The notes beneath the pieces were generated by a model. That model made no database searches. It had not been told where the DNA came from and saw only the letters and a list, made by a program, of their open reading frames with translations. A stretch of DNA of 59,434 nucleotides, filler included, from Circinaria calcarea (Eukaryota), in assembly GCA_051942165.1 (NCBI GenBank). It is 8 parts of 8 records of this genome, joined end to end, with 100 filler letters (N's around TTAATTAATTAA, not from the genome) between each part and the next. Parts side by side here need not be neighbours in the genome. Positions count along the whole stretch, not along the records: positions 14,897 to 22,243 come from JAVECS010001357.1; 7 more parts are not named here. The stretch is one strand, 5' to 3'. Below, one piece after another: positions 620-55,048 of this stretch (position 1 is the stretch's first letter; the number at the start of each line of letters is the position of its first letter). Position numbers and translations under genes: made by a program.

Positions 620-1102
620 ATGATGCCGTGAAGGCCTCGGGGCGCTGAGGAGGAACTCGTACTGGAATGGCTTCAAGACCTTATGAAGAGATTCACGGCG
701 TGGATCAACGAGCGTGGTATCCATGCTACAGCTCGCCGGCGGATTTACCAAGGACCCGGCATCTATCTAGATGGATCCACCAACAAACGGAAGATGGACG
801 TTGGTATTATGGCTTGTCATGGAGATGGCAAGGCTGACCAAAACATCGACGATCTGGTACTCAACTGGAATCAGATCCTTGTAGCCGGCGAATTGAAATG
901 TAACCCTGTAGAGGATGCACAGAACCCGGCATGGGTTGACCTCGCTACGTACGCTCGAGAAGTTTTCCACGCACAAGACCGGCGATTCGTTTTGGGGTTT
1001 ACACTCTGTGGGTCAATAATATGTCTATGGCTATTTAACCGATCGGGCAGCTCTGGATACAAAGTCTCCACAGAACAGACGTCTTCCTATGTAATTTTTT
1101 AA
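620..1102 (+). pseudogene. Fragment of a fungal-type protein kinase (FunK1/Pkinase_fungal family), N-terminal region only
   Basis: Motifs KRKMDVG, WNQILVAGELK.NP.ED, WVDLATYAREVF.AQDRRFVLGFTLCGS..LW.FNRSG are typical of this family. Homology stops right after RSG and there is no catalytic core. Confidence 0.75.
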
Positions 1103-7088: not shown

Positions 7089-7348
7089 CAATTTTGGCTC
7101 CTTCAGCGAGACAGTAAGCCTATTATATTTGGTATATTAATTAAAACTAATTATAATTATAGCTAAAACCCTTACGAATTTAATAAAATATTACTCCCTC
7201 GAGGGTTAAGAGGATTAATAAAATATAAATTAAAAAGATTTCGACACGATTTCATATATTCGTTTAAAGGATATAATTATAATATATTTTTAATTATATT
7301 TTCGGGCGTTAACTGCGACGTAGGGTTTAAAATATAAATAATTAGAGA

Positions 7349-14896: not shown

Positions 14897-15420
14897 GGGC
14901 TGGGGGATGAGTTGGAAGCGCTGTTTGTCACATTTGGCGACGAGGGATTGGAGTTCTGGAAAGGTGACGGAGAGGGAGCGGAGGGGGGGCCAGCAGAGCT
15001 AGGGAGGAGGGAAAGAGTTAGTAGGTGGACTTTCTTCTCTTCTGTCAGAAGAGAAAAGAAGTAATTGCAGGGGGGTTTGTTTTTCTTGTGCGTACAGGAA
15101 AAACAGTAGATGCTCTATCAAAAATCCCCAATAAATGCATTTCCGCAACCGAGAAACAGAAACGGCCATAGCAGGAAACTACCTTCGCACCCCCTTCCGC
15201 CAAGAACCTTTCATCAACTCGAATACAAATGAAAGAGTGCACGTACAAGCTCCCCACAATCCGCATAGCCACCCTCATCTAGCTTCAGCCCCTCCTTCAC
15301 AGCACCGTGCCGTAAGATCCAGCTGATCTTCTTCGACACTAGGACGTCCCTCGGTACCGGAGCCGGGTTGCCGCCTCCACGAGCTGGACGAGGGTTGCTT
15401 CGGCCACCGTGACGGGCCAT
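14897..15420 (-). CDS. TPT1: tRNA 2'-phosphotransferase (Tpt1/KptA), 5' part
   Basis: Exon 1 contains DVLVSKKISWILRHGAVKEGLKLDEGGY; GTACGT...CTAAC...TAG intron; exon 2 (14897-14998) contains ELQSLVAKCDKQRF. Truncated by contig edge. Confidence 0.9.
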
Positions 15421-17399
15421 GGCGCGTTTGAGTAGGAAGTATGGACGGAGAATATTGGAGATTTCGGGGGGGCGGGGGAAGGGATGTGGTGATTGGGGGA
15501 GTTGAATGGGAACTTTGTTGGTAGAAAGTACGAAGGGGACGTTTCCACACAGAAGAGAATACTGATGATGTCTCACTTTATGACATGTGTGTTGCGAGTC
15601 AGTCACTATGACCGATAAAGTTTCCAATGTCACCCGAGTAAGGGAGAGAGGACGGGGAGATCAGTATTCCGCTGGCCGCCTAGCTAAATTATATACTTCG
15701 TTTCTAGCTCAGTTTTTTAAGTGGACTCACTGAGCTACCCAAGATTGCGAAACTCTACAACAGCCATATTAAAAGATGGAGACCTCCGCTATGAAAGGGT
15801 GAGTTGTCTGGCCTTGTGCTTAGTATGGGCGCAATCCAGGATGACTATTCTATGTACGGAGTACTGGAAGACTTCACCCACCATTCTTAGTTGGTTAGCT
15901 GCCTTCCTTTCCATATCCAACAATTGTTACCACTATGTCCGGGCACCATTCGATAGGATCAGTGCATGAAAAGTGGTGTTAAAACAAGGCCAATGCTGGA
16001 AAAAGCGCACGACATTATTAGTGAAAGGGTCCGAAGGATTTCTCACTGATCGAGTTCCACGCAAGCCATCCACACTAAAGTGACTAAATCAAGGACTTCG
16101 TTAACGGCGAAGACACTTTAATAGGATCTTTCATAAATGATGGATAGTAAGCACAATTCATCGATACTTCGTGATACAGAGTAGTAGCCCATCAAGCTTG
16201 CTTTCAACTCCCGGCAGCAAAGAAACAAGGGTAAGATGTGGAACATATCCGTGAACGACCTTCCCATTTCTCATGCTTCTCCATTAGGACTCATCTGTCT
16301 CTTCTCAGCCGCCGCCTCTCCTCCCTCCACCTTCCCCATCTTCTATTCTACTTTCTAGAAGCCCTTGTCCTCGGTCGTTATTAAACAGGATGGTTTCTTT
16401 TCCCAATACCCTACCCACTAGCCAAACCTCCACATCGTAAGAACCCAACCGATGCGTAAAAACTCCCCCGGGCGAATGTGGCCTCATTCAAGCTGAGGAT
16501 ATTGACACATAACAGTCACCCCGACCACTAATTCCCAATCCCCGTTAGGCTTAATCAATTCCCTTTCGCTTCCATGCTGACTCTTTTTTCTTTGCCGCCT
16601 ATTCATGCTCTCCTCTCTTTTTTCGCTCTCCACCAAACCCCAAACCCCCGGGTACCCTTTTAGCTTTCAGCTCTTTCAACCCTCTCCCACGCCTCATTCT
16701 CACACCAATAACTCCATCAATTCACCATACCAGCCAACCGCTGCATCTCGCCCCTTGTACCAGCAACCAGACTTGAGCCAGTCTCGTCCTAGTATACGGT
16801 CTTTCTGTTCCTTGTGTCGACCTCTGCCTCTGCCTTTGAGTTGCTTTTGTTGGGTTCTTTCGACGGATGGCGATTATGTTTCGGCGGGGGACTATGATTG
16901 GTAGGTACAACATGCACGTTAGACTTAGATGGTTGGCTGCTCTGTTTTGATGTCTATTATCATGCTCTCAGCGTCTTTGCTTGCTTTGAGAAATTTCCTC
17001 CGTTTGTTGTCTCTGCTCCGTCATTTCATGGTCGGTCCCTGCCCCGCTCCAGGTTTCTTCGTTCAAAAGGTCTCCTCCGTGCTCCTCTCTTCTATGGCAT
17101 TTCTCCTGCATTCATTCCTTTTCTCTCCTCGATCCCTCTTTCCCAACGCATTACGAGCTAGTTTTCCTCCCTCTTCTCTTCACCTCTCCCGCTTCTCCCA
17201 ATCTCGACACCAGACACCTTCAGCGTTTAGGGCAGTCCTTTCAAGCAGCCTGAAGACTAAGGACCGGTCAAATGAGGCGCTACGACTTCCGCCTTTGGGG
17301 ATCTATTGGCGATGGAAGTGAAGATTGTTGAACAGCGCTCGGGTTCGTATCTCTGTGTGGGCCGGTTGGTAAATGATAGTTGATTAGTGACTGGAGATG

Positions 17400-18184
17400 A
17401 GCGACCACCAAGTTTGTATGACTTTTCCTCTCGCACCTCTGCTTTAACAGGGTACTCGAAGGCTTTGAATATCCTGGCTATTTGATCATTGATAACAAGA
17501 TCAATGTCGCGCCTGATTTTCTCAGATTCCCCCTCTCCTTTTATGTTAATAGAAAAAAGGTTTTCGATATTCAACCGGAACGCTCCTTCGATGATGGAAT
17601 AATGCCTGCTGGTGATAATAAACTTGAGCCTTGTATTTACTCTGTTTCCTGCTGAATAACAATTGCCTAACTTTTCGATTAAAACAGTCCTTGCTGATGG
17701 TTCGCATTTCATCAAGCGCATCTAGGATAAAGGTGATCCGACCAGCTTTAGAATCCGCGGCAACTTCCATCAAAATACCCCATAAGATGTTGCATGATGT
17801 GCACAGAGTTTTGCCTTTTCGCTCGAAATCCTCCATGGCATGTTTGATAAGCGTTGGCTTTTGTCTGTTGTCGTCCTCAAAGAAAAAATAGCAGGTGAAA
17901 GTCTTCCCAAACCATTCACAAGTCCCGGAAATCCGCTTTGGGTTCCTGCCTTTGCCTCCCTCGTAATCTGAAGCGAAAAAACGGAGGTAAGCTCTTTCTT
18001 TCTCTGCGTAATCTGTATTCGATTAGTATTGATTAAGTCTATAAAGTACTAGATACTTAAAAACAAGGAGTGAAGTACCATTGCCGGCATAGGAAAAGTT
18101 GATATAATTTATGTCACCTAGGTGTTGGTGAGACTCGTTACGGCTCCTGTTATTATTATAGACATGTCCTCGACCATGGGCCAT
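17400..18184 (-). pseudogene. NACHT-type fungal NLR remnant with an N-terminal HET-s-like amyloid motif (R0)
   Basis: ATG 18184 gives MAHGRGHVYNNNRSRNESHQHLGDINY; canonical intron 18013-18078; then DYEGGKGRNPKRISGTCEWF, CYFFFEDDN, LWGIL, Walker B FILDALDE (then frameshift), LKFIITSR, DIDLVI. Walker A region absent; no C-terminal repeats. Confidence 0.8.
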
Positions 18185-19759
18185 CCGACCTCGGTCATGT
18201 AGCTAGACGGAGAAGGTGATATTACAAAGAAGATGGTGCTAAGAAGTCGCGAACACAGGAGAGTTGATTCGCCTCTCAAAGTCCGATGGACAAGGCCTGG
18301 CTGAAGCAGACTCGTCGATGAACGGAATGATTACATTGACAGTATGATTTATACTGTCCGCTCCAATCAGTGCAGAGGCGCCAGGCACTAGGCTTGCACG
18401 CTTACACGGAACACTGGTAAGGGGGCTAAATGGCCTCCGGGCGTAAAATCCTCCAGATCCTTTACCTCCGTACCACCGTGCCCTGTAGCGTGCCAGTCTA
18501 GTTATTAATGCCCGCTACCCTGCAATGATTGGAGCTGACAGTATACATTATACCGTCAATGTATACTGTCTGGAGTCACTCTGGTCAACGAATGCGTAAA
18601 GCTTCGACTTATGACATCCTAGTTAACCTCGGAAACTAACTACGTAGTCATACTCTCCCGATAAAATTGCCGTAGAAGCTTAAGCTAGACGCCCGAAGGT
18701 CGGTACAAATCTACCATTAAGGTAGGATAAGGACTTTCGTAGACTCGGTACTGCTCAGCCCCGGCCGGGCAACCCAGCCTCGTTGTGCGACTCAGTTTTT
18801 AGGCAACAGTGTCCCAATACGAGGCCCATACGTTTCGGGCGTCGCGAGGGGGAGCCTGGGTTTGACTTAGCCGTATGTAGTGCTTCCTCGACGAGTGACA
18901 CCTAGACTACTGCGGGTGCAGGCATAATAGGTGTTCAGCGACCAATCCCGGTACTCTCAGCAAAGGCTATGTGAGTAAGTAGAACGTTCCAGCCGGTCAG
19001 AGCCGGCCACTAAGATGGTCAGAATGCCTGAGTGGTCAAAATATGGGTGGAACCTCGTTGTAAGCCTACAGAACAAAATGAGGCAGCGAATGACGGGTTT
19101 CTGCAGCTGTACAGAGTATACAGACAATACGGGCTAGAATCCTTCGTGGCATTCATAGGCCCTTGTACAACGCCGCTTTTATTACTAACAGGGTATGGTA
19201 CACTTAGTGACAGAAATATAATATTCATACAGCTGATAATTCTTATATCGAACTAGGCACATACACGCAGAAGCACGTGTTTACGTGGGCTATTACGCGA
19301 GTAATTAGCGTAGTGGAACACACAAAAGCGTTGTTTTTCTCTTTCCGAATCCATAGACTTTTCATACTTCACGTAGATTTCGCCCATACTGAAATACTAC
19401 ACACAAATTGCCTCACTTACTACATTATGAATATATGATACGAGACGTGCCACATCGCCCAATTCCACCACACTTTATCGAGTATCTACAGACCTCGTAA
19501 AGTCCAACGTCTTATTTAGGCGCATTATCTTTCACTGTATATACGTGCATTAGTGAAGGACTTTAGCCCGTATTATCTGTACTCTGTACTCAAAGATGAT
19601 TACCGTATTCTACTACCATGCTTCAGTGGCTATGCCTGCCTGGGGTTTGAAGATGGTGTCGAGTCATTGGCTGAATTTGCACGGGCGGGGTTTATCAACC
19701 CGCCTCAATGTCCTGGCTTGCCCCTTGTACTTAAAGTCAAGAACAGAACGAAGGTGACC

Positions 19760-20887
19760 ATGGCAGAGCCTCTGGGCGTTTTGGCGGGTGTCGTGCAGCT
19801 GGTAGATTCGTGTAATAAGTTGATTTCATCTTTTGCTGAGATACGAAGAAGAGTTCGCAATGCCCCAGAAAGATTTCGACAGCTCGCAGATCCACTGAGG
19901 CGGCTTATGGACATAGCCCTCTACATCAAGCAAAACCATCGCTTTCGGACCTCGGGGACGCATGTGCTCATCTCAGACTGTGCAAAATCGATATCTGCTC
20001 AAGCAAAAACCTTGCAAGCAATACTTGACGGTGTTTTTCGGGACTACACTGAAGGATCAGTCTGGAAACGATACTGGAAAGCGGCTCGAGCAGTGAAAGA
20101 ACAAGAGATAGCGTCAATTATCAAAAGCCTGGATCAGGAGAAGTGCACGCTTGGCCTGTGTCTACAACAGTGGAATAGTCAAAGCATCATGGATCATATT
20201 CTCAGGATGTCAGGTCGCAGTGAAACCGTGGAATTGGGTGTAATATATCACATATATATGATTGGAGCATTTTCAGGTCTTTAGCTAAACAGTAGAAGGT
20301 GTCAGCGACAAACCAAGCCCGCAAGCACCGGGACACTCGTTCGGACTCGCTGAAGCCAAACAAATCACGAATCCAAAGAAATCTCGAGATTGGAGAAGAG
20401 AATACAAAGAGTATGCTATTTTTACATCTCTTCCAAAATCGAGAATGCTGTGAAGATCAAATGCAAATTCTTTGTCCTCTCGTCATGCTTATTGTGAAAC
20501 CCTTATATAGGGTCTTCCTCGTCTCGATCTACCACCACGCAGTCTGCACCGCCGAGCAAACAAACACGAAAGCATGGCAAACATGTCCACCGGGAGACAC
20601 GGAGCACCTTTGAGGCCAAGCAAACAAACTACGACATTGAGCACGTAATGGAGTCCAACGAAACGTACGAAGATGACAGCGGTTGCGAAGCACCTACCGC
20701 CGCAGTTCCTCCGGGCTTCCTTCATATGCACAAAGGCCATGTTGCCAAGGAGAGCACGCGACAGCACAATGGAGATGTTATGAGAAACGTGCCCAGCACT
20801 GGAGTGCCCAAAGGAAATTGGTATGAAAATTGCCAAGGTGCGGGTCAAAGTTATCAACACAACGGGAATGAAGTTTACTTTAAGTGA
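19760..20887 (+). CDS. HeLo-like/SesA-type N-terminal helical domain effector with two C-terminal HET-s-like amyloid pseudo-repeats (about 323 aa)
   Basis: Exons 19760-20239, 20296-20410 and 20511-20887 splice in frame with GT-AG introns. N-terminus MAEPLGVLAGVVQLVD...VRNAPERF...SVWKRYWKA...IIKSLDQEKCTLGL; C-terminal repeats at 20723-20779 and 20816-20872. Confidence 0.8.
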
Positions 20888-22243
20888 TGGGGCATTCCTC
20901 CAGATCTACTTTGTTCTCTATAGGATAGCGTTACAACACTGAGGTATTTACGGGGATTCTTTCGGAATACCAACGTCAGAGTATCCAAACCAGCGCAGCG
21001 AAGCTCGAGCTTCTATATATGACATTACCATGTGATAGAGATTCTTGAAACTGCATTTCTGCTAATTTTTCTTCACATTTTATATACATGGTGTTGGCAC
21101 GACCATGATTATCCTGGCTATCCTACAGATCTTACACGGCGGAGTCCTCCGCTCCAAAAAAGCGTATCAATTGTCACGGGAGTGCACACATTTCAATGAT
21201 CGAAATAGAATTGATTGATTCTATTTACTATCTACTCCTAGGCTTTATGGCCCACAGGGCCACCTACTCCTTCCTTCTTTCCTATGACACAATCCTACTA
21301 CCGAACAACCAAACCCCAAGCAAGACCCCCTCCAACTTCTGCGTCGTTCACGCCTGTACGATCGTATCTCGCCATCATCAATGCGCTTTCTGCTTTGTGG
21401 TGGTCTCTTTCGGTCTGGGCGTTTTGGCCATCGCCAATCGAACCTTGGACGTTGGAAGATATAGCGGAGAGAGTTGCAGGTTGTCGGCAGCGCCGACAGA
21501 TTTGGGGGATTCTTGCTGTGCAATTTGTCTATCTTCTCTCGTCGTGGAGTATTTCCTTTGGATAACTTTCAAGAGTCCCCAACCATCTGGCTTGAAAACC
21601 GTTGGGCAATGGGGAGGACTGACCGCAAATATCCCCATGTGCATTTTTTGGCCCCTGGTGGAGGAATGGGGGATGTTGAAGCGTGATGGCAATGAAGGAG
21701 AGAGAGAGCAACGAGGAGATATCGAGCGGGCACCAGTAGCAGCACCACCGCCAGTAACGGCACCCACCGCCTTTACTTGAGCCGATTGTTCAGCATTCTC
21801 CTCTGGAACTCTGAAGTTTGCTCACGCGGCATCAGAAAGGTGAAAAGATTGAGCAGAGCGGAGGAGTCGGGAGGCTTGCAGAAATTTCGATTACAAGTCC
21901 ACACTTTCTCTTGCTTTGATGAGCGGAGGGGTTTCTCTTGCGGTAGGATAACTCTCCTAGTTATTCCATACATCTTACATGGCGGAGTCCTCCATTCCAA
22001 AAAATCCGTATCGATACTGCTACCAAGACAATCAAACCCCAAGCAAAACTCCCTTCACACCCTCTCTTACCCCAGGATTCGCATCCCTATCCTAACTTGT
22101 GCCCTAAGCAAACCGTGTAAACCTAACACCCCATCCAGCATCCAAGGCCCAAAATCCCCACCCCAAGTCCTTCAAATACCCCTCTATCCCTTATTAGAGA
22201 AAAAAAAGAGAAAAATACACACCTCACAGACTCGCTCCACGGG

Positions 22244-22343
22244 NNNNNNNNNNNNNNNNNNNNNNNNNNNNNNNNNNNNNNNNNNNNTTAATTAATTAAN
22301 NNNNNNNNNNNNNNNNNNNNNNNNNNNNNNNNNNNNNNNNNNN
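22244..22343. other. Artificial contig linker
   Basis: N44-TTAATTAATTAA-N44. Confidence 0.98.
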
Positions 22344-25300
22344 TAACAACCCTACACCTCCCCACCGGCACCACGCCGACAATCTCCTGCTTCCTTAACC
22401 CCCTGATCAACTCGCCTTCCCTCCTCATTCCTCTTTCCTCCTCGAACCCTTCGTCCCCGACCCCCGGCATCCGCTTCTTCCTCTCCCGGTCGCCGATTCC
22501 CTTGACCCAACTCCCCAAGATCTCCCGCACCGCTTTCCCTTTCTTCATCGCCCCCGGTTGCATCTTGACCCTCCAGCGGAGTTTCGAGCCAATGGCATCC
22601 CAGGGGGCGCAGACGACGAGGAGATCGAGGATCTCGTCGCCGGGAAGAGGCGTCCCCACCCAGGAATCCAATAAAGTCAGTTCTGCCTCTTCGTCCGAGT
22701 CGAGCGTCACAAGGCCTTCTTCTAGGTTGAGCCGTCTGATTTCCTCTAGTTCTTTGCCCGCTTGTACAGTACGTTGATGTTGTTCTCTGCGACGTTCTTT
22801 TTGCGCAGCGAGGGCGGCATCACGCTCGGCTTTAGATACGGCATCCGCGGCTGCTTTTTCTGTTGCTGCTGCAGAACCTAGGAGACGAAGGGCGAGAGCT
22901 CGATCTTCTGGGTCTTGGTTGGCGTATTTCGTCTTTTGTTTGCTGCGTTGGCCATGTTTACCACGAACACGAGGAGGCTGAGGTTGGGATGATGGTCTAG
23001 TGGAGGTGGATGCTGTTGCCATATTCGAGTCTGCAGAAAGGTCCCGTCCACTTGAAGTGGTACTGGGTTGCTGAGAGCGACTATCAATAGGTAAAGGTGC
23101 CCCTTTTCGAAGAAGGCGACGCTCTTTAGCGGACAGATGGCGGACACCAGATTTCAAACTATCTTTATTGAAAGTGAGAGCGTTATCCGGCTGAACTTTA
23201 TCTCCTGACTCCTCAATTTCAGACCCGGCGCTGTCGTTGTCTACTTCGGCAGTGGAATTCTGCCCAAGCTCGTCATTGCTTTGAGGTGATGTATTAACGT
23301 GCAGCCCATCTCCATAATTTGCAGGTCTCCCGTTGGATTGGAGTGGATTAGAATAGTTTCCAGTCATATGTTCTTCGTTGTCCTCGCCAGAATTACCCTC
23401 ACCATCTGATTCGGAAGGCTGATGCTCACTCTCGTGATCTGAATCCGAGGAGTCCGTCACTTCATGGCCCTGATCTTCTTCGTCAATTTCATCTCCCTTT
23501 CCGTCTCCCTTTCCATCATCCATGTCACTCTCGGTAGCCAGGACATCTTCTTCAAGCTCCGCTTTATTGTTGCTGGCCGATTCTTTCTTTGGATCTTCAT
23601 CGTGCAAGCGGTGTTTAAGATGTCGAGCCTTGCTTTCTTCGCTAATCTGGAACATTACACCAAAGCCCAGGAGCAGCTGCGCCGGAGGCAAAAAGTTCTT
23701 CTTCCCGCGAATCATGAAACCACCCGTCGTCAGGTACTCTCCGGTAGGCGCTGTTTTGGATACTTGATCCGAATTGACCCACCAAGCTGACATGACAGCC
23801 TTCGAATCCCATGCACTTGACGTCGCTACAGCCAAGGTACCAGCCTGTGAAAGAGTTGACGGCGGTATAGGTGCGTCTGGCGTGTTTGGCCTATTCTTGA
23901 TGATGACCGATGCGCTTCCGCTGATATCAGAATGTACATAAATATCGCCCTTTGCCAAGTATTTCTTATAAAGGGTTTCGTTTTGCTGTGCATCTCTACC
24001 ACCAAGAACCAGATAACCGTCAGAAGATATAAAGTAGTAGAATTTTTCGAACCATAGTTGCTTCCGTAAGGGTCTCAGAACCTGTTTCTCTTGTTTAAGC
24101 CCCCTTTTCAAGTCCGCGTTGATCTTCTTCTCAGTACTTTTCAAGGCGATCGCAGATGACTGTAATGTCTTCTGTTCCTTGACTGCTGCGGTTTTCTTGT
24201 GATCATAGTATTGGCTGGCATTAGACCAGGGGGAAAGTGCCAGGTCTATATCAATGGCAAGCCGTTTGTCGACAGCCTTGGTAGGGTTTGGTGGGTCTTT
24301 CTTCCTGACGCCCTCATCCTCATTATCAGATACTTCACTATCAGAGACATCATTGTCAGTCCCGTCGCCTTCACTGCCAGAGATCTCACTATCAGTCTCG
24401 TCACCTTCATAGTCTCCCTGGTCATCGAAATCAACCTCGGCGAGTAACAAAGTAACAGTATTTTCATACAGTTTGAGAGGCAATTTGATTATTTCGGCAA
24501 CAGGGTTTTGGCGTGCCTGCTCCATCTCTATTAGACGGGCAATCTCGACCCAATCCATCCCTTGAGCAATTAGTCCATTCACAGCAGCGATAGCTTCATG
24601 CACTCTTTGCAAATTAGCTTCCACGGCTTGCGCTTTGCGAATGTTGAGCTCCTGAACCTCTTGGAGCCCACCGACTCGCTTCTGGTGATCTTTCCTTGCA
24701 GCCTCCAACTTCTTTCTCGCGTTTTCTTCTCGCTCGGTCAACCGAGATTCAAGCTTCTGAGATTCAATAGAAGAGAAAAACTCGTCGACAGTCCGGTTGA
24801 ATCCTTCAAACTCTAGGATCCGGATTTCGGGGTTCCCCTCAAATTGCCGAGGCCGGAAAGGGTGAAAGTCTTCATACAAGAAGTTTCCTTTCTGTCCAAT
24901 CACATCTTCCGCCTCTTTGCCTTGATCACCCTCAACACCAGAAGGCTTTGCTTTGACGATCTTGGCAACAATATAACCTTTGGCGATTTCCGCACTTGTA
25001 ATGTCTGCAACTACTCTGTTTGCTTCTTCCAGGACCTCCAAGAGTTTATCTGAAAGCGAATCGTTTTCTAATACATCTTTAATAGGTATAGCGGGATCGA
25101 AGCCCTTGATTCGAAATGCATGATCAACGAGCATCGGCGGGAACTCGTTCAGGGAGGTAGCCAGAGCTTTCCGCAAGGCATCTCCAGGCTTCTTCTTTGA
25201 CTTCTTAGCAGGCGCTGAGCCTTCACTTGCTGACCTTTCCAAGGCTCTAGATAGTCCGTCTCTAATTCTTTCTTTTGATAGCACTGGCGTGCCCCCATAA

Positions 25301-25876
25301 TTTTGACGATTTTCCAATGAGTACTTCAATCCTACGCGCAACTCCTGCTCTTGTTCCTCACTGACTGTACGTAAAAGGGCAAGTATGGTGAGCTCTTTAT
25401 CCGCTAGTACAATGTTACCACCCGCATAGAATTCCAAAAACAGTTTGTATTGCCCATCGCTAAATTGAAACTCGATGATTCGATCTGTGCCTACTTGAGA
25501 GACTGATGTGACCCTTCGTGTCCGTAGGTATTTCCTTAGCCGTGTCACAAACGCTGAAGGAGCAGCTGCGGTAGCTCTGGTGAAGCTAGTAAGATGACAA
25601 CGAAATCCGGAGTCTATGATCATCTGCTGCCGCTGGTTTGGCTTGGCGAATTTGAGAAGAAATATGCGCTGTAGATTCGTTTAGTAGCGACTCAGATGCT
25701 TTCATATCGGTATTACCTACAGAGGATAAGTCATATACGTTTGCGAGTCGGAGAGTACAGAGGGCGTTTGATAACTCATGCGCGATGACCTGAGACTATT
25801 CAGTAACTTGCGATTCGGAAGACATCGAGAGTAGAGCAGTCACCTTGACGTCCAAGGAAGAGAACCGTTGCTTCAT
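22344..25876 (-). CDS. RQC2: Ribosome quality control subunit Rqc2/Tae2 (NEMF, NFACT family); last codons cut by contig edge
   Basis: MKQRFSSLDVK exon 1, LRLANVYDLSS exon 2, then a long exon with WFEKFYYFISSDGYLVLGGRDAQQNE and SKTAPTGEYLTTGGFMIRGKKNFL. Confidence 0.97.
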
Positions 25877-37127: not shown

Positions 37128-37227
37128 NNNNNNNNNNNNNNNNNNNNNNNNNNNNNNNNNNNNNNNNNNNNTTAATTAATTAANNNNNNNNNNNNNNNNN
37201 NNNNNNNNNNNNNNNNNNNNNNNNNNN
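37128..37227. other. Artificial contig linker
   Basis: N44-TTAATTAATTAA-N44. Confidence 0.98.
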
Positions 37228-37427
37228 CTAGTGTGACCACGTATAAGAAGTATCTGAGTAAATGGGGCGTGACGAAGAATACTAGAAAGAAATCCGACCT
37301 TGTGCCAGAGGAGAATGGGTTCAGGGAAAGCCTCAGTGAGAGAAGCATGGATTGGAACTCCTTTCCCATAGAGGTCTTTGAGTCTACTAGTAACCAGAGT
37401 TGGGGTACTTTCGCATCAATAGAGTAG
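37228..37427 (+). CDS. Fragment resembling the end of a Clr5 domain (contig edge)
   Basis: YKKYLSKWGVTKN matches the Clr5 C-terminal YK..L.KWG..KN pattern. Confidence 0.45.
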
Positions 37428-38418: not shown

Positions 38419-38998
38419 GTTCCAGTATGGTCGCTTACCGTACTACATACAGTAGGTACTAACGCTGAGGATTGTTCGACATAACCAAAACCTCTCAGCC
38501 CTTTTGCAATAAGGTATGCACCATTTGCATAACCCGGTAAGGGAGGGGTGCCTCGCTAGTGCATCTTTTAAGGGAGCTAGACCCAAAGGAGTTAGCCTTA
38601 ATCGGACCTTCCGGCTGAGAAGAGCCTTCCATACCATAGCTTTAAAACACCAGAGAAATGCAAGCAAACTTAACATCATCCATGCCCACAAGCCTTTATT
38701 ATTATCTTAGCAACTCGCCGTGTTCATCCATATTTCATGTTATAGAGAATCTTTCACTGGCAGTAATAAGTCAGGATTTTCGGCCTCAGCGTCTGGCTAG
38801 CACTAAGAGATAGTAACAAGCATTTGGTATATTTGCTTCGGCATTGGCATGTTGCCCAAATCTTTACCAAAATCACCAAAATCGCAACTCCCAGCAATTC
38901 GTCACTGTTGATTCAAGGTATACCCGGGATAGTGGTTTATGCAGGATTTCTATACCAACCTCAATCCAGATCAGTTACTAATATCTTAAGTGATGATC

Positions 38999-40330
38999 AT
39001 GAGTATACCTTCCCCTCATCCACCTCAATCATCAAACAGAGAAGAGCAGCCAGCTATACCAGCAATACCATCGGCATTAACAAATCAACGTAGATCGACA
39101 CAAAGAAAGCGGATCAGCGCTCAAGAATGGGACCTGATGCGCACTACTATACGGACCCTATACATTACGGAAGGGCTGACGCTTAGGAATACCATGGAAT
39201 TACTAGAAGAGAAATACAGCTTCAGGGCGTCGTAGGTAAATTACTATGCACAAACAAAATCGCATACTAAAAATGTCACTTTTAGGGAGAAGAGTTTCAA
39301 ATTTCAATTGAAGAAATGGAACCTGAATAAAAACACAAAGAAAGCAAACAGTGAAAGATGCACAAATCCGCGTGAAATCGAAAGACCAGTGGACGTTGAG
39401 TCAAGTAAAGGTTGTGGTAAGGTGTCTCTCTACCTAGACCGGTTTCACTAAATTACATAAATAGCTGCGAATGAGAATTCTCGACCTCGAGAAACCGACG
39501 AAGCAAGTTATGAGTTATGTTCTGTATTGAACGCCCCTAGCAGCGAGTCTGTGCAGAGTCTCCCAAAGTGGATAGGTTTAACTTGGCAGGGCCATGACAA
39601 GAGCGCTTTGGATTCCATGTTAAATAAAGGAAGGGATCTAGAAAACCGTGGCGAGTATGGTGACGCGGAGGAAAAATACCGGCAATGCTACAAAGGTTAC
39701 GACCATCTTCTCGGCCCAACCAATCAAAAAACCCTCCAAGCCATCCGTTATATTGATCAGATGTGCCGCAAATTGGAGAAGGCGGAAGAAGCCGAAGCTC
39801 TTTTGGTAAAAACCATAACGTTGTGCAAAGACAAGTTCGGCCAAATGCACGGCAAGAGCTTGGAGTTTATGGAGATTTACGCCGTCAACCTACAAGCGCA
39901 GAAGCGTTTTGCCGATAGCGAGGTCGTGTTGAGTCAGGTGTTGGAAGGGTACGAGACCCTTTACAAGTCGACGCCAATAGAACAATTCGAAAAGTGCAAG
40001 GGGCCAGTGTTGCTTCTGGCGACCGCCCATTTGAAACAAGACGCAGCCGCTTTGGCTGTGGAGCTGTTAGAAGACACCTTGACCAGAGCAAGCGTGACTG
40101 TCCTCGCACAGGAGAATGAAAAGCTGATGCAAATGCGAAATGAGTTAGTGAGATTATATGTTCATAGAGACGGCACCGCTGGAATCGGCTCACTAGAGGA
40201 CCTGAGACTTTTTGAGAGCTGGCATGGCGACCATGAGATTATTAGCAGGGTGGAATCGGCCCTGGGATCAACTTCCAATGGCAAATTTCTAGAATCAAAT
40301 TTCCAAAGCCAGATAGGGTTAGGGTTATGA
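38999..40330 (+). CDS. Clr5-domain protein with TPR-like (kinesin light chain-type) repeats, probably 3'-truncated
   Basis: EWDLMRTTIRTLYITEGLTLRNTMELLEEKYSFRAS|EKSFKFQLKKWNLNKN (Clr5); GEYGDAEEKYRQCYKGYDHLLGPTNQKTL and similar TPR units. The frame runs into a minisatellite. Confidence 0.8.
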
Positions 40331-53976: not shown

Positions 53977-55048
53977 TTATTCCAGACGAGCAGAGGCCTC
54001 ATTTGCTTCGAGAAGAAGCCTAACCACGTCACAATAGCCGCCTGCAGCAGCCAGATGTAGCGCCGTGGACCCCTGAGCATCACGGGCATTAACAGGAATA
54101 TCTGAACTCTCCAATAGCAACCGCACAATAGAAAGGTCGCCCTTCTCGGCAGCAACGTGTAGGGCCGTCTGACCGAGATTATTCGTCGCCGCGAGCCCGA
54201 TGCATTTGTTCTTGGGAGAGGTGACCTGGGGTTCCAAATCCGCGAGATTCGGGTCAACGCAAAACTCGGGCTCCGTGTCACGATAGGGCCAATTTGTCGG
54301 CAGCTCCACGTTCTCGGGTGGTGGGGTAGGCTCTAGGAATCCCAGTGTCTACCGAGTAATCAAAAACTCGCTCGTAACGTTGGAGATCTGGGAGACGTGA
54401 GGGACAAACGCACCTGATCCGTACAAATCACGCTTTCACATTCGGCACCCTGGTCGGAGTGATCGGGAATCGAGGCAGCCTGGCTCTTATTCAAGCGATA
54501 CGGTGGTCTGAATGAGGGATTTTGCTCTACTGGCGCAGACCAAGAATCCTGGACTAATTGCTCAAAGTCACAATCTTCTATTTCTGAGTTCCGGATGTTG
54601 CTATGATCATATGTGTACCTAGACGGCTCCACGGAGCGCACACAGGCCGAGTTATTCGAGGTAAGCGTATCGCTGTGATCATGCATCAAGGCTGACTTTA
54701 GATCGTCGAGGTGGTCTTTGGAAACTCGCTTGCTCGGGTTGGGCGGTCTCGAGCTGACCGGAGAGGGGACGTGCTTATGGCGTTGGGAACTCAGCTCCCG
54801 GCCGAGCATTGGTTGACCGTGGCTCCGGTATGCTGCCATGGTGGTGGTTAGCTCTTCGAGAGCTTGCAGACGGTTCTTGACGCCTTGACCTTTTGTCGAT
54901 GTGAGCTGCTTTGCGAGAATACGCAGGGGGGTGAGCCTTGATGAACTTTTGACTGACGGTATTTCTTCTGAGCCACCCGGTTTTGCTCTTTTCTTCGCTT
55001 GGACACGCCTGAAGCATTCGGGGAGGTGGGTTCAAGGCGTTCCGCCAT
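53977..55048 (-). CDS. bZIP basic region plus ankyrin-repeat transcription factor (bANK, ToxE/Aps2-like architecture)
   Basis: KRRKEQNRVAQKKYR|QGVKNRLQALEEL; two GT-AG introns join in frame; ankyrin repeats GQTALHVAAEKG and GSTALHLAAAGG. Confidence 0.85.

Follow-up and report, generated by a model that had tools for sequence, protein, structure and literature searches.

Amyloid templating from a NOD-like receptor (NLR) to an effector is a well-catalogued fungal cell-death pathway, and templating followed by release of the effector's membrane-targeting domain has been established for HET-S, as described in PMC4344463. Here, we describe a gene pair of this kind in a window of DNA (the whole stretch that was analysed, 59,434 nucleotides in eight joined parts) from the Circinaria calcarea assembly GCA_051942165.1. 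Within the part that comes from JAVECS010001357.1 (positions 14,897 to 22,243), an effector gene on the (+) strand and a NACHT gene on the (-) strand diverge, with an ATG-to-ATG distance of 1,575 bp. Since the pathway is so well catalogued, the pair itself is no surprise. We consider it to be probably a HET-S/NWD2-type amyloid-signalling module of a lichen-type ascomycete, the receptor half of which has decayed.

The motifs that link such pairs are grouped under the name HET-s-related amyloid motifs (HRAM), which are defined in PMC4518210 by a pair of 21-residue repeats carrying G19, by hydrophobic residues at positions 5, 8, 10, 16, and 18, and by R or K at position 15. According to that source, the repeats form the C-terminal end of a HeLo, HeLo-like or sesA protein, a loop of 6-18 residues separates them, a short aromatic segment follows r2, and the single r0 stands at the N-terminus of the adjacent NLR. 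HRAM1 has N at position 3, HRAM2 has Q there, and HRAM3 has H, while Q18 belongs to HRAM4 and Q16 to HRAM5. The 2015 table in the same source comprises 155 HRAM proteins, 2 of them from the lichen fungus Cladonia grayi, and only 38 of the 155 are matched by the Pfam family HET-s_218-289 (PF11558). In the literature on NLR, HeLo, and amyloid, the Lecanoromycetes were unnamed among the matches listed.

Repeats on both genes of the pair

The following elements carry the comparison:

20717..20779 (+): repeat R1 in the 21-residue register, FLHMHKGHVAKESTRQHNGDV
20780..20809 (+): loop of 10 residues between the repeats, MRNVPSTGVP
20810..20872 (+): repeat R2 in the 21-residue register, KGNWYENCQGAGQSYQHNGNE, then the aromatic tail VYFK
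18110..18172 (-): repeat R0 in the 21-residue register, RGHVYNNNRSRNESHQHLGDI, residues 5-25 of the NLR

An earlier reading of this DNA (the sequence-only reading) had proposed a HET-S/NWD2 layout, in which two HET-s-type repeats close the effector and a NACHT gene about 1.6 kb away on the opposite strand starts with a matching one, and it had remarked that the open reading frame (ORF) track misses both halves. This description was borne out, since the peptides quoted are exact translations of 20723-20779 (+), 20816-20872 (+), and 18110-18166 (-), and annotation based on ORFs does miss both genes. R1 and R2 lie within the last 60 residues of the effector. Two C-terminal 21-residue repeats on a SesA protein, a 10-residue loop, an aromatic tail, G19, and a matching single R0 at residues 5-25 of a divergent NACHT gene are thus all present.

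The pattern QH[NL]G[DN] occurs three times in the six frames of the window, solely at R0, R1, and R2, and in 200 block shuffles its mean count was 0.055 with a maximum of 1. Since this pattern was picked after seeing the data, a second test was based on profiles built from the effector repeats only, taken from four homologues (the window's own effector and three others), which were run against the window's 48,716 stop-free 21-mers. R0 (18172-18110, -) was the best non-self match with the R1-set profile (31.5, next 24.8), the R2-set profile (35.8, next 29.0), and the combined R1+R2 profile (33.6, next 13.1), and it ranked third, after R1 and R2, when the profile was made from P0002 and P0003 only. 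In pairwise comparison, R0 had a BLOSUM62 score of 31 with R1 (5/21 identical) and 38 with R2 (7/21), so that it resembles R1 and R2 better than these resemble each other. An r0 nearer to r2 than to r1 is also reported for HRAM1 and HRAM4 in PMC4518210. The motif match is therefore far above chance, and it is found at the sites predicted, the N-terminus of the NLR and the C-terminus of the effector.

The public protein closest to the (+) gene, P0001, is a partial hypothetical protein from a metagenome-assembled genome labelled as the lichen-forming fungus Circinaria calcarea, with 95% identity to effector exon 1. An exhaustive HMMER search with exon 3 of about 1.84 billion representatives gave P0002 and P0003 at 52% and 42% identity, both from ENA and Logan contigs and called as stand-alone ORFs. 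All three homologues keep the C-terminal 56 residues with the double repeat. The spacing of 31 residues given in the sequence-only reading proved general, being the distance from G19 to G19 in 4/4 homologues. G19 is present in R0, R1, R2, and all 8 homologue repeats. The residues R15, Q16, N18, G19, and D20 of R1 and G2, N3, Y5, E6, C8, S14, and QHNGNE of R2 are invariant in the four homologues, as is the loop length of 10 residues, with R, N, P, and G invariant in the loop. P0001, P0002, and P0003 have in common RQ[HR]NGD[VI], the partly invariant loop, GN-x-YE-x-C, QHNGNE, and the aromatic tail, which after R2 reads VYFK or IWYK. The motif region was more conserved than the linker in 6/6 pairs (e.g., 0.93 vs 0.68 and 0.54 vs 0.42), and in the linker before R1 (20690-20716) the window effector does not have a 21-residue segment that is found in P0001, P0002, and P0003.

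With four instances found by exhaustive search, namely the window's own and the three homologues, this motif lineage is rare. A profile search for longer proteins returned P0001 alone among 8000 candidates scored, and the corresponding search with the SesA exon gave one match among 767 candidates. In scans of the Joint Genome Institute (JGI) metagenomes, the C-terminal alignment had 142 pattern matches and the SesA exon 178, of which tblastn confirmed 0 in either case, and the last 75 effector residues had no usable match in the ESM Atlas. Exon 3 matched no Pfam family at E<=1.

Position by position, the repeats have H at position 3 in R1 and R0 and N in R2; Y at position 5 in R0 and R2 and H or F in R1; H/Q, C, or N at position 8; A/S/G at position 10; Q at position 16 in all repeats; H at position 17; N at position 18 (L in R0); and D/N at position 20. 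R15 is found in R1 only. The published set of hydrophobic residues at 5, 8, 10, 16, and 18 together with R/K15 is consequently not present as a whole. The charge pair at position 6, with K in R1 and E in R2, is as in HET-s. The HET-s repeats to which the sequence-only reading aligned these peptides correspond to the first row of the published table, and a hand count over that alignment gave 5/19 residues in common for R1/r1 and 8/19 for R2/r2.

The same reading had left open whether this is a new HRAM subtype. Since the repeats fit the published 21-residue register and, compared by eye with the published table, come nearest to HRAM3-type entries, the motif appears to lie within known HRAM diversity and is not a new family. 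What is unusual in it is its histidine content and the polar character of the predicted core positions 8, 16, and 18. This Q/N/H-rich predicted core would probe the tolerance of the HET-s fold for a polar interior.

The effector gene

The proposed effector model comprises three exons and two GT..AG introns (56 and 100 nt), for which we infer splicing into one open frame of 323 residues:

19760..20239 (+): exon 1, SesA domain, 160 residues, predicted four-helix N-terminal domain (Pfam, AlphaFold2)
20240..20295 (+): putative intron 1, 56 nt, GTAATA..TAG (from sequence and frame logic)
20296..20410 (+): putative exon 2, 115 nt, basic linker, frame link from exon 1 to exon 3
20411..20510 (+): putative intron 2, 100 nt, GTATGC..TATAG (from sequence and frame logic)
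20511..20887 (+): exon 3, linker, two-repeat C-terminus, and stop codon

Without splicing, exon 1 runs into a stop at 20282-20284, which would give a SesA-only product of 175 residues. When exon 1 is joined straight to 20511, the frame stops at 20648, and the middle exon is therefore needed. The exon 2 peptide is also present in the P0001 gene model. The equivalent of intron 2 is read through in P0001 with its frame changed relative to the window, where a stop stands in this stretch; intron 2 thus tolerates indels, which fits a non-coding stretch.

Exon 1 matched the Pfam family SesA (PF17107) with an E-value of 2.9e-08 and 34.3 bits (cutoff 26.3), residues 9-131 covering profile positions 2-122 of 122 and hence the full profile. 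The N-terminus had previously been described as HeLo-like. The profile search that was suggested for the spliced protein corrected this in favour of SesA, which was above threshold, while the HeLo-like family PF17111 (Helo_like_N, now PigL_N) remained below its cutoff (15.5 bits vs 27.2) and HET-s_218-289 was unmatched. Ses_B and NACHT_sigma had no Pfam match at E<=1. The AlphaFold2 (AF2) model of the SesA exon, built from a two-sequence alignment, has four long helices with a mean predicted local distance difference test (pLDDT) score of 62.8. Foldseek gave no match to this model at E<=0.001; its best match, the coiled-coil (CC) domain of potato Rx (E 0.16, at a model pLDDT of 62.8), was not used as evidence. 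A PDB sequence search with the exon returned chance-level coiled-coil designs only (E 0.24 or worse). At 95% identity to P0001, the SesA exon bears no sign of domain inactivation.

Downstream in the joined window, a 1130-codon open frame on the (-) strand (22288-25680) adjoins the effector gene and by eye looks housekeeping-like, so that the pair would lie among ordinary genes and not in a repeat-rich island. An Rfam scan of 16000-22000 gave no match, and 15600-19800 contains only trivial tandem repeats. The window also contains 616 N in 14 short runs, which stand in pairs about 7.4 kb apart (at 7348, 14796, 22243, 29690, 37127, 44564, and 51999), are not biology, and leave the finding untouched.

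The decayed receptor half and the shared intergenic region

The receptor half was resolved into the following parts:

18079..18184 (-): NLR exon 1, ATG at 18184, 35 codons, carries R0
18013..18078 (-): putative NLR intron, 66 nt, GTACTT..ACTAAT..CAG, linking R0 in frame with the NACHT-like ORF
17700..18012 (-): NACHT remnant, frame 1, with a GTCEWF box, a bare GKT, FFF, and Walker B (LDALDE), and no Walker A
17704..17713 (-): frameshift, one extra base at the A-run right after DALDE (about 17707-17710)
17257..17715 (-): NACHT remnant, frame 2, with a stop at 17257-17259

The putative intron contains an ACTAAT branch box. The NLR fragment, used as the query for longer proteins, had one match among 136 candidates, P0004, a protein of 740 residues with NACHT and ankyrin (ANK) regions. 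When P0004 positions 1-189 were aligned by tblastn with 17986-17624, identity was 28% and 68 of the 189 columns were gaps, which take in all of the Walker A region as well as 18 residues following FFF; P0004 positions 27-52 and 56-73 are unmatched in the remnant. Relative to this NACHT-ANK homologue, about 68 residues are missing. Walker B is present (ITFILDALDE) and aligns with P0004. The Walker A pattern G-x4-GK[ST] was found in no frame of 15700-18250, where there is a bare GKT only. Both Pfam families that were approached stayed below threshold, NPHP3_N with 21.0 vs 24.8 and a match that starts no earlier than profile position 81 of 164, and NACHT with 12.7 vs 26.7.

Two tblastn segments in different frames overlap at the frameshift site. 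In the second frame, identity was 35% over 106 residues and homology continues to about 17404, equivalent to P0004 position 264 of 740; the ORF itself matched no Pfam family. With homology ending there, no C-terminal winged-helix or repeat sensor (WD, ANK, TPR) was found, and Pfam gave no NLR-related match for any of the 13 ORFs that lie between 15792 and 17477. Lacking the P-loop and the oligomerisation and sensor region, and with the frame broken, the NLR as assembled can be neither an operational receptor nor a ligand-gated trigger. Assembly error cannot explain why the P-loop and the C-terminal two thirds are missing.

The next gene beyond the remnant, at 15217-15660 (-), is an exon of the RNA 2'-phosphotransferase Tpt1/KptA (Pfam PTS_2-RNA, 39.2 bits). 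Elsewhere in the window, a coding sequence of ankyrin repeats at 53995-54177 (-) matches the ANK part of P0004 by tblastn and belongs to another gene. A TPR_10/TPR_12 ORF within 38990-40330 (+) is preceded by ORFs that by eye resemble the Clr5 domain, with a similar fragment near 37176-37427, and no adjacent NB-ARC or NACHT domain was seen; this ORF (39461-40327) was considered as a second NLR and rejected, as it follows the Clr5-like sequence and has no R0-type motif. A fragment of Pfam Pkinase_fungal lies at 632-1099 (+), with 70.5 bits over profile positions 12-86 of 387 only.

The region between the two start codons holds two further elements:

18332..18563 (no strand): inverted-repeat element with 44-nt arms, 89% complementary
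19109..19589 (no strand): second inverted-repeat element with 27-nt arms, its end about 170 bp upstream of the effector ATG

With blastn, the arms of the second element lengthened to about 37 nt at 86% (range 86-89%). Both elements look like insertions of the miniature inverted-repeat transposable element (MITE) type, and no further copies of either were found in the window. The first residues of the partial P0001 correspond to about 19620, a short way beyond the second element, which fits a contig break at the repeat.

Readings of the pair and known systems

By analogy with HET-S, a cognate amyloid seed would template R1 and R2 into a two-rung β-solenoid, and this refolding would free the SesA domain for membrane attack and hence toxicity. 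The (-) neighbour would be the descendant of the cognate NACHT receptor, with the templating repeat R0 still at its start. With its divergent genes, its R0 on the NLR, and its R1/R2 on a HeLo-related effector, the pair is, as far as sequence can tell, HET-S/NWD2-type by descent. Since neither nucleotide binding nor ligand sensing is possible for the neighbour receptor as assembled, the effector would be orphaned or served in trans; either another receptor elsewhere in the genome may act on it, or the module may be undergoing loss. The earlier term "amyloid-signalling cell-death module" accordingly stands for the layout and the motifs, and it does not hold for the NLR, which as assembled is no operational receptor; the term fits the descent of the pair better than its present state.

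Several observations weigh against this interpretation. R1 and R2 are weakly alike (BLOSUM62 11, 4/21 identical, ranks 27 and 14 of 48,716), their core positions 8, 16, and 18 are polar (H/Q/C/N; Q; and N, or L in R0) where the published ones are hydrophobic, PF11558 had no match at E<=1, and the exon 3 profile matched no PDB chain at E<=10. The models of both genes are built from sequence and frame logic, and their donor sites GTAATA and GTACTT deviate from the consensus usual in fungi. As to decay, the losses of the receptor were sized on a single NLR homologue (P0004, at 28-35% identity), the frameshift alone could be an assembly error at the A-run, and the two long open frames kept in the remnant imply a decay that is recent or not neutral.

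A chance resemblance, in which N/Q/H-rich disordered tails merely share QHxG and take no part in amyloid signalling, would agree with the polar core, the missing HET-s profile match, the low similarity of R1 to R2, and the AF2 monomer of exon 3, which had no secondary structure at a pLDDT of 49.6. Such a model is uninformative for an amyloid, and a prion-forming domain would be expected to appear disordered as a monomer; the predicted complex of the effector tail with the R0 exon scored 0.04 (mark 0.34). We hold this explanation to be highly improbable, since R0, which keeps the register and stands where the model predicts it, came first among 48,716 21-mers, no part of exon 3 is more conserved than the repeats, and several register-specific features are common with published HRAM3-type entries; Q16 and N18 do occur in individual published HRAM entries (PMC4518210). 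There is a similarly slight chance that the repeats do not belong to the SesA protein, exon 3 being a separate small gene or untranslated. The possible stop of exon 1 after 175 residues and the calling of P0002 and P0003 as stand-alone ORFs would be in keeping with this, although the latter two appear to be ORF calls on unannotated contigs and so cannot show splicing, whereas canonical GT..AG sites yield the one open frame of 323 residues, the annotated P0001 model joins the SesA domain to both repeats, and a SesA domain with a C-terminal motif is a published architecture (PMC4518210).

The receptor half can also be read in other ways than as the decayed part of a HET-S/NWD2-type module. That the pair is fully functional as NWD2/HET-S, with the NLR defects being assembly errors or missed gene structure, would suit the intact effector and a receptor whose R0 exon, intron, and roughly 290 codons are open but for one frameshift at an A-run. 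It is nevertheless quite improbable, because Walker A coding is absent from every frame of 15700-18250, gaps take up 68 of 189 aligned columns, the approximately 1.7 kb before Tpt1/KptA contain nothing NLR-like, and a single base error cannot explain such losses. Unlikely, too, is a derived state like that of het-s, with the receptor lost and the effector or a short R0 protein turned into a self-propagating prion or allorecognition element: the conserved prion-type repeats and the preserved R0 start, intron, and frame of the remnant speak for it, but the SesA domain, 95% identical to its only close homologue, is without sign of inactivation, and plain recent pseudogenisation accounts for the same facts. 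We are equally doubtful that the polar, histidine-rich HRAM variant (Q16-H17-N18-G19) on a SesA protein with an R0 remnant serves prion formation or allorecognition, or constitutes a lineage-confined HRAM subclass.

Taken as a HET-S/NWD2-type module with a decayed receptor, the pair resembles HET-S/NWD2 of Podospora anserina (HRAM1) in its divergent adjacent genes, the two 21-residue C-terminal effector repeats, and the NACHT NLR with one matching repeat at residues about 3-25, as well as in G19, [DN]20, the K6/E6 charge pair, G-x-G at r2 positions 10-12, and the aromatic tail. It differs in that the effector domain is SesA here and HeLo there, the loop has 10 residues instead of 15, core positions 16 and 18 hold Q and N where the Podospora repeats have V and L/I, the effector has no match to Pfam PF11558 or the PDB HET-s chains, and the ORFs are 1.6 kb apart compared with 0.6 kb as given in PMC4344463.

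The HRAM3-type entries of Daskalov et al. 2015 (PMC4518210) are alike by eye in H3 of r1 and r0, N3 of r2, the aromatic position 5, [NL]18-G19-[DN]20, loops of 9-11 residues, GH-x-[YF] starts, and [NL]-G-[DN] ends; among the entries given there, one r0 reads RGHVF...HLGDH, one r2 reads RGNVY...HNGNQ, and one r0 ends in SRQHNGNV, sharing the RQHNG core of the present motif. These entries have V/I at positions 8 and 10, in contrast to H/Q/C/N and A/S/G here, and Q16 of the present repeats is a feature of HRAM5 in that source. The sesA/sesB/het-eN sigma-motif cluster of Nectria haematococca, as described in PMC4518210, likewise combines a SesA protein, a C-terminal amyloid motif, and a neighbouring NLR, but the layout here is that of a two-repeat HRAM, and Ses_B and NACHT_sigma are unmatched.

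For the state of the receptor, the closest parallel is the het-s haplotype of P. anserina, in which an intact prion-domain protein adjoins an inactivated NLR; according to PMC4344463, every wild het-s strain carries nwd2 as a pseudogene. There, nwd2 was inactivated by a transposon scar with premature stops, whereas P-loop loss, a frameshift, and 3' truncation are found here. The pair thus adds a second example, beyond Podospora, of an intact prion-domain effector adjoining a decayed receptor, a combination that bears on the loss or exaptation of such modules.

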